A DNA stretch of 32,000 nt from Aliivibrio fischeri ES114 (lineage in GTDB: Bacteria > Pseudomonadota > Gammaproteobacteria > Enterobacterales > Vibrionaceae): NCBI RefSeq assembly GCF_000011805.1, contig NC_006840.2. The stretch is one strand, 5' to 3'. The notes beneath the pieces are model-generated. The model did no database searches, had not been told where the DNA came from, and worked only from the letters and a program-made list of their open reading frames with translations. Positions within the stretch are counted from its first letter, which is position 1. The number at the start of each line of letters is the position of its first letter. A program made the translations under genes and the position numbers. Shown here piece after piece: positions 5,637-15,972 of the stretch.

Positions 5637-7016
5637 ATGGCACATCCTCTTAATCGAAATTTTCAAAACTTATTTCAAGTAGCTCGTTGGTCATTACTAA
5701 TTCTACCTGTTGCTTTATTGGTAGGGTCATTTAATGCATTCTTCTTATGGTTACTAAGTGAAGCAACGCAAGCTCGTATTGCGAATCCATGGTTGATTTA
5801 TTTATTACCAGTTGCTGGTTTAGCTATTGTTTATAGCTACCGAAATTGGGGTAAAAATTCGGCGGGCGGTAATAACTTAATTATGGATGAAATCCACCAA
5901 GCTGGGGAAGGTGTTCCAGTAAGAATGGGGCCATTAGTGTTATTTACTACGGTGATAACGCATTTATTTGGTGGTTCTGCTGGTCGTGAAGGTACGGCTG
6001 TTCAAATAGGTGGTGCAACAACAGATTGGTTATCTAAAGTCTTTAAGCTATCTGAAGATGACCGAAAAATGATGCTAACCGCAGGTGTTGCTGCTGGTTT
6101 TGCTTCTATTTTTGGAACGCCTTTTACTGGGGCTATTTTTGCTCTTGAAGTATTGTTTATTGGGCGTATTAAGTTCAATGCCATCATTCCTGCGCTATTG
6201 GCTGCTATCTTAGCTAATGTGGTCGCTTCGGCTTGGGGTGCTCATCATACGCATTATTTAATTAACTTTGATCAGGTTAGCACCTTGTTTGGTCATGCTG
6301 TTGATATCGATCTTTTATTAATGGCTAAAGTGATTATTGCTGCAATTGGTTTTGGTATTGCTGGTTATTTGTTTGGTGAGTTAACTCATGGCTTTAAAGA
6401 CCTGTTTAACGCAACATTAAAGAACCCATATTTGATTGTAGTTGTGGGTGGTTTGATGGTCATCATCATTACGCAATTACTTGGCAATTATGATTACATT
6501 GGTATTGGTGTTTATCCAAGTCGTGATGGTGGTGTGAGCATTACTTCTGCATTTACAGAAGGTGGAGCTGAGTGGTATAGCTGGATTTTAAAATTGGTAT
6601 TAACTGCGATTACTCTTGCTGCTGGTTATAAAGGTGGTGAAGTAACACCGTTGTTTTTTGTTGGTGCTACGTTAGGTAACTTCTTAGGTTGGGTTATGGG
6701 GGCTCCGGTTGATTTATTTGCTGCTCTGGGTTTCCTTGCTGTATTTGCAGCTGCAACCAATACACCATTAGCTTGTACGATTATGGGTGTGGAACTGTTT
6801 GGTGCTGAGTATTTACCTTATTTCGCATTAGCGTGTTATACGGCTTATTACTTTAGTGGTCATACCGGTATTTACTCTTCGCAACGTGTTGCTGTTTCTA
6901 AAACATTAGAGCATGGTCGTGATCATGACGGCTTAAATAAAATAGGGTCATATCGTGAACATAATTCATCGTCATTAAAACACCTAGCGAATAAGCTAAC
7001 TAAAAAAGACAAATAG
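5637..7016 (+). CDS. CLC-F family fluoride/proton antiporter (EriC-F)
   Basis: 459-aa polytopic ClC-fold protein. It carries the CLC-F variants of the selectivity motifs: GGNNLIM in place of [13 protein letters not shown] in place of GKEGP, and GGEVTPLFF. Preceded by a fluoride riboswitch. Confidence 0.85.
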
Positions 7017-7029
7017 TTTCACGTGAAAC
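7016..7029. repeat. Palindrome family copy 1 (GTTTCACGTGAAAC)
   Basis: Perfect 14-bp palindrome that starts on the last base of the CLC-F TAG stop codon. Confidence 0.75.
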
Positions 7030-7319
7030 ATGATGGTTTATCTAGATTAGAACTTGGTAGAGAGAATTAGAACCTAATGTGCTTCTCCACAAAAAATAAC
7101 ACTGTATTTGTTGGTGTAAGAGCTACGGATGACAAAGGTGGTTTTTTGCTGAGAAGCACACAAGGTTTAATATGGATTGTCGATATGTAAAACTCTATAT
7201 GCGCTCACTCACAAACTCAGCCAACCACTTGATAACTTTTTTCTCTTCCATTTCATTTCTTGCATACTTTCTTTATACTCCGAAGACGTTCAGATTTTGA
7301 TTCAACGATCTGAAAGAAA

Positions 7320-7415
7320 CTTGTCGGAGTGCTTAGTGCTTTTTAAAGTACGAGCTGAGACCGCAGTGCGGGATCCGTAGAACCTGATCAGGCTAATACC
7401 TGCGAAGGGAACAAG
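7320..7415 (+). promoter_or_regulatory. TPP (THI-box) riboswitch
   Basis: P1 CTTGT...ACAAG encloses GGAGTGC...GAGCTGAGA...AACCTGATCAGGCTAATACCTGCGAAGGGA, which contains the hallmark CTGAGA and ACCTGATC.GG.TAATACC.GCG blocks. Located upstream of thiC. Confidence 0.88.
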
Positions 7416-7616
7416 AGACAATTTACATCTCAGTTTATGAAACCATATCTACAGATTGAAAGGTACAGACGTAGCTGAATTTTAGCTGCTATTTATTCTT
7501 TTTAACTTGTGGGTATAACAGTACAGACAGATATTCTCTGCAGCATAAACTAAGAACCTCTTGCTACAACTCAAATCCGGCAAGCAATTATTCTATTTTT
7601 ATCAAGGAATTTTGCT

Positions 7617-13272: not shown

Positions 13273-13310
13273 AAAGTACTACTTAACTTAAGTAGTACTT
13301 TATTTAGTTT
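13273..13310. terminator. Bidirectional terminator between convergent thiH and the hexosaminidase gene
   Basis: Perfect 13-bp stem AAAGTACTACTTA / TAAGTAGTACTTT with a 3-nt loop, with A/T-rich runs on both sides. Confidence 0.8.
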
Positions 13311-13327
13311 GTTGATTTTTAGCTCAG

Positions 13328-15775
13328 TTACTTACGTAACTGACGAACTAACTCTTCTGTTGGGCGAACAATAGCAACAATCATTTCATCGTACATTCCT
13401 GATGCATTTGTAGTAATAGATAATAGTTTATCTAGTTGTGTCGATGTTGGCTGTTGGCCTTTTTCAAGCTCATTAATAACTGCTAACGTTGCTTTTGCTA
13501 CCTCAACATGTTTTTGGGCTAGCAGTACAGTATCTAAAGAAGATACATTATTTTTAAACATGACTTCTGATTTTTGCGCACTCTCTAAGACAGTTTGGTA
13601 ATGTTTTTGTAGTGCTTTTAAATCACTCTGATCATTGATCGCCGTCTTTGCAAGTTTTATCATTTCTAATACTGCAAAACTCTCCACTGGAACTGCGTCT
13701 GCAAAGCGATTTAATCTTTCGTATTGATTGTATAGTTCTCCTTTTGGATCGGTAGAATTATACTTCGCCCAGTTACGAGCATAGTATTGGGCAGGTTCTG
13801 CATAGTTTGCAAAACTCATCAGTGCAGACACATCACCGCCGTTAGCAATACGTAAATACTGCTTATAGCTATTGGTTTGATGTTGTAAGCCAACAGAAAT
13901 CGTTGCCCAGCTGTCCATTGCCTGTAGGCGTTGGTACATGCTGTCTTCATCGGTAAGCTCTTCAGCTGACCATAAACGTTCAGCAACGGCATAAGTTCTA
14001 GGCCAAATTCGACCTTCAACAGTTAGGTCGTCGTAGTTTTCTGCCCAGATAGCAGCTTCACCACCAAGAATAAGTTTTTCTTCATCTTTATTTAAAGCAA
14101 CAGGATAGCCACCATTAGGAGCTGGAATCACTGAGTTCTTGATTGATGAACTTGCGGTCATTTCACCTGTGGTTGGCCAGCGAACATTTCCGACTAGCTG
14201 GTAGCTTTCTTTTTTAATGTTGCCGTTATTGAAGATTAGATTAAATTCGGTGTAAGACATGAAGTTATCAAAATGACCACGGAATGACTCACCTTTGGTG
14301 TATTCCATGATATCGACTTTAGCTCGTGATTTTCCGTTGTAATCAGTAAAGGCACGAGCATCACCATTCTTATCGGTAATGATAGTTAGGGTACCTTTAC
14401 GTGGACCACCTTTGCCTCTTGGCTTCTGCCAAGTGTAGGTTTCGAATGTTTCTCCACTATGCAGTTGGTCATCGACTTGTGGTCCCTTTGGCATAGGGTC
14501 ATTACGATAATGGTAGCTGGTTGGTTGCGGTTGATCTAAATAGAACCCCGTTGAAAGTAATCCGGTATAACCTTCTTTTGCTGCTCGACCAATACTGTCA
14601 TGTCCACGCCAGCTTTGAATGACAATCGATGTTGGCAGATCTTTATGCCAAATCTCATCCCAGCCCATGATCTTCTTACCTTTCTTGTTTAGCATTTTTT
14701 CAATGCGTGCATTTAGGTATGACTGTAAACCACGGTTACCATCAATATTATTTTCTGCGATGAATGCTTGGATTTCTTTATTATCTGTCCATTGTTGGTA
14801 ATTTGGCTCATCACCACCAATGTGAATGTATTCATCTGGGAACAGCTCAGTTACCTCACTGAATACTTTGTCGAAGAAGACATAGAGTTCAGGGTTAATA
14901 GGATTCATTAGAGGAACAAAAACACCCCAAGCGCGTTGTTGATCGTAAGATTGTTCACCTTCTCCAGACATTAATTCAGGGTAAGCATGAGCAACAGCTG
15001 AAGCGTGACCAGGTAATGAGATCTCAGGAATTACTCGAATACCGCGTAGGCGGGCGTATTCAACAACGTCTTTGATTTCTTCTTTTGTATAGAAATCACC
15101 ATCGGCAGTTTTCTCCCACAGCTTAGGGTAACTTTCGATTTGAATTCGGATTGCTTGGTCATCCCATAGGTGCCAATGAAAAACATTCATTTTTGCGGAA
15201 GCAAAACCATCAATCTGACGTTTTATTGTATCAACGGTGACAAAGTGACGAGAGGAGTCAAATGAAGCTCCACGCCATGGGAAACGAGGTTCATCTTCAA
15301 TATTTACTTGAGGAACAAAGTAACCCGCTTTGGATGTGTTGATTAATTGAAGAAAAGTCTCTGCACCACGGAGTGCTCCGTATGGACGATCAGATTCTAA
15401 AATGATTTGTTTTTTATTGATGGTTAATTCGTAAGACTCGTCAATGTCGTTATCTTGAATTTTATTTTTGGCCGCCTTACTCACATCGATAATTAGTGTT
15501 GCTTCCTTTTTAGATGAAGCAAAAGGAGTAAGTAGTGGTAATCCAGTTTGAGCTTCTACACGTTGAATAATACGTAAGGCAAGTTGCTGAATGCGCTCTG
15601 ATTTATAACCATCGATATAAATACTGAAATCACTAGTAATTTCTAATTGGCCTGAATTTAACTCTACTGATTGAGGGTATGGCATCAAGTTTAACTTTGT
15701 ATTGGGAGCTGAAGCGAGGGATGATGCACTAAAAAGAAAGCTTGAAATCGAAAGAGTTAAAAGTGTTTTTTTCAT
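13328..15775 (-). CDS. Secreted GH20 beta-N-acetylhexosaminidase (chitobiase-like)
   Basis: 815-aa ORF with an N-terminal signal peptide (..SASSLASA). GH20 catalytic signature HIGGDE (YIHIGGDEPNY) and upstream HWHL motif (VFHWHLWDDQ). Confidence 0.85.
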   Translation of the reverse strand: MKKTLLTLSISSFLFSASSLASAPNTKLNLMPYPQSVELNSGQLEITSDFSIYIDGYKSERIQQLALRIIQRVEAQTGLPLLTPFASSKKEATLIIDVSKAAKNKIQDNDIDESYELTINKKQIILESDRPYGALRGAETFLQLINTSKAGYFVPQVNIEDEPRFPWRGASFDSSRHFVTVDTIKRQIDGFASAKMNVFHWHLWDDQAIRIQIESYPKLWEKTADGDFYTKEEIKDVVEYARLRGIRVIPEISLPGHASAVAHAYPELMSGEGEQSYDQQRAWGVFVPLMNPINPELYVFFDKVFSEVTELFPDEYIHIGGDEPNYQQWTDNKEIQAFIAENNIDGNRGLQSYLNARIEKMLNKKGKKIMGWDEIWHKDLPTSIVIQSWRGHDSIGRAAKEGYTGLLSTGFYLDQPQPTSYHYRNDPMPKGPQVDDQLHSGETFETYTWQKPRGKGGPRKGTLTIITDKNGDARAFTDYNGKSRAKVDIMEYTKGESFRGHFDNFMSYTEFNLIFNNGNIKKESYQLVGNVRWPTTGEMTASSSIKNSVIPAPNGGYPVALNKDEEKLILGGEAAIWAENYDDLTVEGRIWPRTYAVAERLWSAEELTDEDSMYQRLQAMDSWATISVGLQHQTNSYKQYLRIANGGDVSALMSFANYAEPAQYYARNWAKYNSTDPKGELYNQYERLNRFADAVPVESFAVLEMIKLAKTAINDQSDLKALQKHYQTVLESAQKSEVMFKNNVSSLDTVLLAQKHVEVAKATLAVINELEKGQQPTSTQLDKLLSITTNASGMYDEMIVAIVRPTEELVRQLRK

Positions 15776-15954
15776 TATGTGTAGTCCTATATTCCTTTAA
15801 ATTCCAAGGAAGGATTACGTATAAAGAGAACTTTGTATGTGACCAAATTATGGTTTGTATTAATAACATTGAGTGATTTATTGTTAGTTAGATATTGTGG
15901 CGCAAAATGTTTGTATCTGTGAAATAAATTACATAATAAATTTGAACTGTAACC

Positions 15955-15972
15955 ATGTTTCACGTGGAACAT
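15955..15972. repeat. Palindrome family copy 4 (ATGTTTCACGTGGAACAT)
   Basis: 18-bp palindrome with one mismatch in the hexosaminidase / aminopeptidase intergenic region. Same TTTCACGTGGAA variant as copy 2. Confidence 0.75.

Follow-up and report, generated by a model that had tools for sequence, protein, structure and literature searches.

A 32-kb stretch of Aliivibrio fischeri ES114 DNA (contig NC_006840.2; the whole stretch is called the window) contains four copies of a 16-bp palindrome in and around the thiamine (thi) operon. We are highly confident that these are parS sites, the centromere of the chromosome 1 ParABS system of A. fischeri and the counterpart of the parS1 cluster of Vibrio cholerae. 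The copies are identical to the parS consensus, are clustered, keep their positions in Vibrio and Aliivibrio, and lie in a locus syntenic with the V. cholerae locus mapped by chromatin immunoprecipitation (ChIP). Binding and spreading of ParB, and a function in segregation, would follow by analogy. The element is already known as chromosomal parS, bound by ParB, and the finding is real but ordinary; only the turnover of sites at a fixed locus and a possible dual DNA/RNA role of the thiC-thiE copy are mildly new.

An earlier note on this DNA had recorded a recurrent palindrome at four places, and the full 16-mer was recovered at each of them, no strand being assigned: site 1 at 7015-7030 (AGTTTCACGTGAAACA), site 2 or ‘site A’ at 9568-9583 (TGTTTCACGTGGAACA; reverse complement TGTTCCACGTGAAACA), site 3 at 11062-11077 (TGTTTCACGTGAAACA, the perfect consensus) and site 4 or ‘site B’ at 15956-15971 (TGTTTCACGTGGAACA). 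All had 0 mismatches to NGTTNCACGTGAAACN and 0 or 1 mismatch to TGTTTCACGTGAAACA; the ‘G’ variants of the 16-mer are the reverse complement of TGTTCCACGTGAAACA. Read on one strand, all four had 0 mismatches to GTTNCACGTGAAAC and matched the 16-bp inverted repeat tGTTNCACGTGAAACa. The dyad symmetry of 16-20 bp proposed earlier held beyond 16-18 bp for the 9568 copy only, and not for the other three.

As the earlier note had claimed, the recurrence was not random. The core TTTCACGTGRAA was found at 4 loci in the window, where dinucleotide shuffles gave 0.05. When up to 3 mismatches were allowed, the 18-mer gave 4 matches (0.05 expected) and the 16-mer TGTTTCACGTGAAACA also 4 (0.37 expected). For the 16-mer with up to 1 mismatch, the analytic expectation in 32 kb was 3.7e-4. 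The four copies were confined to 9 kb; no fifth copy was present in the 32-kb window even at 3 mismatches, leaving the other 23 kb empty.

Among the literature matches listed for the exact 16-mer, all concerned ParB-family proteins or parS sites. A published parS consensus table gives TGTTNCACGTGAAACA for Bacillus subtilis and NGTTNCACGTGAAACN, with 3 sites, for V. cholerae chromosome 1 (PMC7022226), and TGTTTCACGTGAAACA is itself named ‘consensus parS’ (PMC6238139). In V. cholerae, sequencing of ParB1 ChIP DNA (ChIP-seq) gave three peaks, each on a 16-bp parS site and all inside 7 kb (parS1 at 62,438), and no other binding in the genome (PMC6238139). The earlier note had allowed that the motif might already belong to a known family, and it does, being chromosomal parS.

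Conservation and turnover of the sites

Eighty thi loci were mapped for parS matches (≤2 mismatches) and for the proteins of the window. Site A, between ThiC and the ThiE-homologous region, and site B, between thiH and the convergent aminopeptidase gene, were present in every Vibrio locus fetched (25 loci). Both were found at the same positions in all Aliivibrio loci except that of Aliivibrio sp. S3MY1 (L211), where both are degenerate. Many Vibrio loci had a further site C (CGTTTCACGTGGAACA) within the 5' end of a major facilitator superfamily (MFS) gene, giving an A-to-C span of ~7.0 kb that agrees with the published V. cholerae layout. The order of genes in the window (thi, aminopeptidase P, LysR, MFS) is that of VC0060-VC0069, the V. 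cholerae side being taken from the published map. There, ParB1 occupies a zone at 59-75 kb that includes the operon VC0060-66, and its spreading silences two genes, VC0067 (aminopeptidase P) and VC0069 (multidrug MFS) (Baek et al., PMC4010829). By spacing and gene order, window sites A and B are the apparent orthologs of ParB-bound V. cholerae sites.

When 68 sites from Vibrio and Aliivibrio were compared, the central 14 positions were essentially invariant, the flanks were unrelated, and no compensatory change was seen inside the 16-mer. An invariant center with unrelated flanks argues for selection on a DNA word read by a protein rather than on a stem, and rules out a mobile element. The same 16-mer was kept in intergenic DNA, over a stop codon, and within thiF, fadB or long thiE coding sequence, which indicates that the word was under selection and not its context.

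The chromosomal position was read from complete records. ThiE was 98-99% identical to proteins named Aliivibrio fischeri by NCBI; a ThiG search of species-representative genomes gave an Aliivibrio metagenome-assembled genome at 90% identity and Vibrio species at ~80%. Exact CLC and HemG proteins were present in many assemblies, with DNA 97-98% identical to the window. The locus lay at 20.6-41.1 kb in the 2.9-Mb A. fischeri record CP001139.1, at 28-49 kb in A. wodanis LN554846.1 and, in V. harveyi chromosome 1, at 60-80 kb counted from the end of the record. GC skew was positive over the whole window, as expected of one replichore, and the copies were few and clustered (four in 9 kb, and a fifth ~1.8 kb beyond the left edge of the window). 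In V. cholerae, the distance between the sites and the origin is given as ~65 kb (Baek et al., PMC4010829). Together, the record coordinates and the distance of the V. cholerae sites from the origin suggest that the A. fischeri cluster is origin-proximal.

Several points weigh against the parS assignment. The placement relative to oriC is indirect. No parAB genes were found in the window or the fetched flanks, so the window has no ParB gene of its own; A. fischeri presumably has ParA1 and ParB1, as is general for chromosome 1 of Vibrionaceae. The thi loci in Photobacterium, Enterovibrio, Grimontia, Veronia and Salinivibrio are syntenic but had no sites, which indicates that the location is clade-specific and that the set of sites turns over.

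In favor of parS, the motif is specific to the Vibrio and Aliivibrio loci among those compared: no site with ≤1 mismatch was found in 56 other thi loci (998 kb; syntenic Vibrionaceae and ~45 non-Vibrionaceae). A metagenome scan for the Aliivibrio-type site A (TGTTTCACGTGRAACA N25-55 ATGTTTGC) matched at least 120 unrelated contigs with 27-71% GC, and among the matches listed only L119 was Aliivibrio-like; the scan was unspecific because parS is universal.

Turnover was visible at individual sites. Site 1 was limited to the Aliivibrio lineage: every A. fischeri strain fetched had it at the same position, as did most species of the genus. The site was absent in A. finisterrensis (L213 6526-6906), where a CrcB gene replaces the CLC gene, and in A. 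wodanis locus L212 despite the retained CLC gene. Site 3 was absent from the Vibrio loci fetched and is Aliivibrio-specific; its 16-mer was intact in all Aliivibrio loci though the thiF tail varies in sequence and length. The fifth parS (GGTTTCACGTGAAACA; L081 2738-2753, L087 7019-7034) lies ~1.8 kb left of window position 1, inside a fadB-like (ECH/3HCDH) gene; every A. fischeri strain fetched had it, and so did A. salmonicida. No more sites were present in the next 7 kb to its left, and the full A. fischeri cluster thus comprises five sites over ~15-18 kb. A relic of Vibrio site C in the MFS gene of the window was considered and rejected (best match, 6 mismatches).

Genes around the sites were remodeled. 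In V. harveyi, site A sits in frame in a 471-aa ThiE (L005 7536-8951) with an N-terminal extension of ~200 aa (..ANVSRETLL..). Aliivibrio ThiE (window 9622-10281) is the short 219-aa form, as in several Photobacterium and Enterovibrio species, so that Aliivibrio site A is intergenic; both the long and the short form occur within Vibrionaceae. Between thiH and site B, the window has a strain-variable segment (13189-15998) with a GH20 hexosaminidase gene. Five of the six fetched A. fischeri strains lacked this gene and had site B immediately after the thiH stop, whereas strain L082, A. wodanis and A. finisterrensis had the gene at the same place. The replaced GH20 segment brings a distinct parS variant, with G at position 12. 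In S3MY1, the site after thiH also has a core mutation (TGTTTCACATGAAACA). The comparison therefore shows centromere-site turnover, with gains, losses and retention through gene remodeling, while the cluster stays at one locus.

A possible thiC-thiE hairpin and alternative explanations

As RNA, site 2 is part of an extended stem-loop at 9561-9590 (+ strand), with 13 pairs followed by a U-rich tail (GTTTTGT), a candidate attenuator or mRNA hairpin between the two cistrons. Its fold had an energy of -15.6 kcal/mol (z = -6.2; 0 of 200 shuffles as stable), and a terminator scan scored the stem-loop as terminator-like. Sites 1, 3 and 4 folded no better than shuffles (z = -0.6, -1.3 and -1.2, respectively). 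Such an extension is the exception, as 58 of the 68 Vibrio and Aliivibrio sites had 0 or 1 complementary flanking pair; site A was extended in all Aliivibrio lineages, with differing flanks (GGGA/TCTC, AGTGG/TCACT, GGTGG/CCACC, CCGG/CCG).

Covariation was scored on an ungapped alignment of only 8 related Aliivibrio lineages. The five flanking pairs were standard pairs in 38 of 40 cells, and one flanking position showed five pair types (GU, UA, AU, UG, CG). Over all cells, 88% were paired, vs. 47-55% with slid partners, and the covariation score was 0.286 vs. 0.195 in shuffles (2 of 500 shuffles as high). RNAalifold gave the same 11-pair helix, with the parS copy at its tip. Many of the pairs were G.U on the sense strand only, where the other strand would have C.A, which points to the mRNA rather than a DNA cruciform. 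In Aliivibrio sp. S3MY1, site A (L211 9946-9961; TGTTTCTTGTGGAGCA) has lost the CACGTG core; of its three changes, two are in the loop and one creates a U.G pair, and the stem persists.

The covarying flanks and the S3MY1 stem suggest a second use of the copy as an mRNA hairpin. That the Aliivibrio thiC-thiE parS doubles as a functional intercistronic hairpin is put forward tentatively, as a possibility with the balance against it. One word would then serve as the ParB centromere in DNA and as a stabilizer or partial terminator in the sense transcript, where it would set the ratio of thiC to thiEFSGH. If true, this would be a neat but modest case of a protein-binding palindrome recruited as mRNA structure. 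In V. ulleungensis, site B (L023 9158-9189) has the flanks AAAAAAGA (A-run) and TCTTTTTT (T-run), and here the centromere word makes up the stem of a perfect bidirectional intrinsic terminator, apparently a co-option similar to that of Aliivibrio site A.

Of the origins offered by the earlier note, a selected protein-binding site stood, as parS bound by ParB; a miniature element and a general RNA hairpin did not. Were all copies hairpins of transcripts, acting in processing, stability or termination with no protein partner for the DNA word, the 9568 copy (-15.6 kcal/mol, z = -6.2, terminator-like, with covarying Aliivibrio flanks) and the thiH-proximal copy of V. ulleungensis (L023 9166), a perfect A-run/stem/T-run terminator, would be explained. 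The other three of the four window copies, with z of -0.6 to -1.3, behave like shuffles; 58 of 68 sites have ≤1 complementary flanking pair, and the 14 central positions stay invariant with no compensatory change inside the 16-mer. Copies also lie within coding regions and, in either orientation, by a minus-strand gene. We consider a purely RNA-based explanation very improbable. Short palindromes recurring mostly at gene boundaries could also recall insertions or remnants of miniature mobile elements, such as repetitive extragenic palindromes (REP) or miniature inverted-repeat transposable elements (MITE). The copies share no likeness outside the 16-18 bp core, have no target duplications or terminal repeats, hold the same orthologous positions in genera ~20% apart in protein sequence, and in several cases occupy reading frames that are left undisrupted; 32 kb held no extra copies. 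A mobile origin is accordingly given next to no credence. To our knowledge, E. coli has no chromosomal ParABS system, and the comparison drawn earlier with the tightly packed thi genes of E. coli is therefore beside the point.

A perfect dyad near the promoters and terminators of several genes might instead be the operator of another dimeric transcription factor of the CACGTG type, regulating thiamine or nearby genes. The copies do not sit close to promoters but at places such as a stop codon, the thiF 3' end and an intercistronic spacer, and the thi operon already has a thiamine pyrophosphate (TPP) riboswitch at 7315-7427. The word is identical to parS and common to bacteria of 27-71% GC in unrelated metagenomes, and the only V. 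cholerae ParB1 ChIP-seq peaks are the three parS1 sites, placed by synteny at orthologous positions. An operator of this kind is highly unlikely, and parS remains the preferred identity of the palindrome.

Two sequence links raised in the earlier note did not survive. The (CCTGAAA)n tract shares with the palindrome only the TGAAAC overlap, a coincidence of 5-6 nt with no CACGTG dyad, and the stem of the nearby terminator is likewise a 5-6 nt coincidence with no CACGTG-centered dyad; that terminator (15988-16015) is the ordinary 12-pair terminator of the aminopeptidase gene. The heptamer tracts were rejected as parS-related, as neither had a CACGTG dyad or a parS match at ≤3 mismatches: (CCTGAAA)7.4 lies at 29161-29212, just downstream of minus-strand tatD, and (TCCTGAA)5 at 31362-31396, just downstream of a minus-strand ppx/gppA-domain gene.

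Gene context and other features of the locus

The gene-boundary placements given in the earlier note agreed with both the gene calls and the raw sequence. The CLC gene (5637-7016) ends in the stop codon TAG (7014-7016), of which site 1 covers the last 2 nt; the gene lies behind a fluoride riboswitch (5443-5510), which backs its reading as CLC-F. Site 2 is within the 70-nt thiC-thiE spacer, with the thiC stop 17 nt upstream of it and the thiE ATG 38 nt downstream. Site 3 falls within the last 16 codons of thiF, where it is read as D-V-S-R-E-T, and 22 nt separate its end from the thiS ATG (11100). Site 4 has the aminopeptidase terminator on one side and, on the other, the start of the divergent GH20 gene (13328-15775, minus strand).

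The open reading frames (ORFs) beginning ‘MFHVKH’, suspected earlier to be artifacts, are indeed products of the palindrome with its flanking ATG...CAT. The ORF at 11058(+) is thiS plus a 14-codon extension (MMFHVKH...), and that at 15972(-) encodes 61 aa (MFHVKH...); an additional spurious ORF of 27 aa (MFHVEH...) was found at 15955(+). For annotation, the assignment to parS accounts for these ‘MFHVKH’ ORFs and for the over-extended thiS start, and it locates the origin-proximal centromere on chromosome 1 of A. fischeri.

Other features were recorded in the same locus. At 7060-7170, in the long CLC-thiC spacer and upstream of the TPP riboswitch, the arms gtgcttctc and gagaagcac make a long-range inverted repeat that comes with a T-run; it may be the terminator of the CLC gene or a small RNA (sRNA). 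The 3' half of tRNA-Trp (1800-1876) contains the start of a 126-bp tandem repeat (1841-2189; 2.8 copies with 99% identity). Every unit holds a terminator-like hairpin, copy number varies among A. fischeri strains, and the repeat yields the spurious ORFs 1737-2129(-) and 1844-2281(+). A CsrB/RsmB sRNA gene (28286-28603; 99 bits) precedes a tandem repeat with a 180-bp unit at 28727-29061 (1.9 copies, 93% identical). In Aliivibrio OZ183475.1 (L215 1107-2342), a reverse transcriptase gene of the group II intron type (RVT_1 + GIIM) had inserted after hemG, in that strain only.

Proposed mechanism and comparison with known systems

The proposed mechanism draws on the orthologous V. cholerae system and on the biochemistry of other ParB proteins. 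A ParB1 dimer would read each 16-bp dyad through its helix-turn-helix domains; the parS-bound ParB would take up cytidine triphosphate (CTP), close as a clamp and slide to flanking DNA, as described for CTP-dependent nucleation of ParB at parS (PMC7053999). Repeated loading at the five sites could build a ParB-rich nucleoprotein complex over ~20 kb, from fadB to the MFS gene, on which ParA1 would act so that the origin-proximal region is moved to, and held at, the cell pole. In V. cholerae, the ParB complex is tied to the pole through HubP (PMC7022226). Roadblocks such as transcription limit ParB spreading (PMC7053999; PMC6238139). By analogy with V. cholerae, side effects may include mild silencing of the aminopeptidase P and MFS genes and some hindrance to thi elongation. 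On this assignment, ParB is predicted to coat ~20 kb, possibly lowering expression of the thi operon and of the genes for aminopeptidase P and the MFS protein. As a discovery it is of little weight, since parS has been characterized for decades and the homologous V. cholerae cluster is ChIP-mapped.

In its structure, the stem-loop at 9561-9590 resembles intrinsic terminators and mRNA stabilizer hairpins (13 pairs, U-rich tail, covarying flanks). It is unlike ordinary terminators in that its tip is a protein-binding centromere word, and the other three copies are without such structure. The parS2 site of Vibrio chromosome 2 (NTTTACANTGTAAAN) is likewise a ParABS centromere with a 15-16 bp dyad in the same bacterial family; it differs from the window sites in sequence, in its ParB (ParB2) and in its replicon, and no copy of NTTTACANTGTAAAN was found in the window. 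The parS sites of B. subtilis, bound by Spo0J, and the universal consensus tGTTNCACGTGAAACa have the identical 16-bp dyad, and clamp loading of ParB with CTP and its spreading presumably proceed as in B. subtilis. The B. subtilis sites also load SMC condensin. Vibrionaceae generally use MukBEF, and this role is therefore not expected in A. fischeri.

Compared with V. cholerae, A. fischeri has five sites over ~15-18 kb rather than three over 7 kb, and the cluster lies at ~27-45 kb in complete Aliivibrio records vs. ~62-69 kb in V. cholerae. A. fischeri lacks the MFS-gene site of Vibrio and has three lineage-specific sites (CLC stop, thiF 3' end and fadB); its site A is intergenic, next to a short thiE, whereas that of V. 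harveyi lies inside the long thiE. The window sites at 9568 and 15956 hold positions seen in all Vibrio loci, where they correspond to the first and second sites, respectively, of the parS1 cluster. V. cholerae parS1-1, -2 and -3, the sites of ParB1, have the same consensus (NGTTNCACGTGAAACN) and the same locus (thi VC0060-66, VC0067 and VC0069), and in both species the sites form a cluster of a few kb that lies some tens of kb into chromosome 1.

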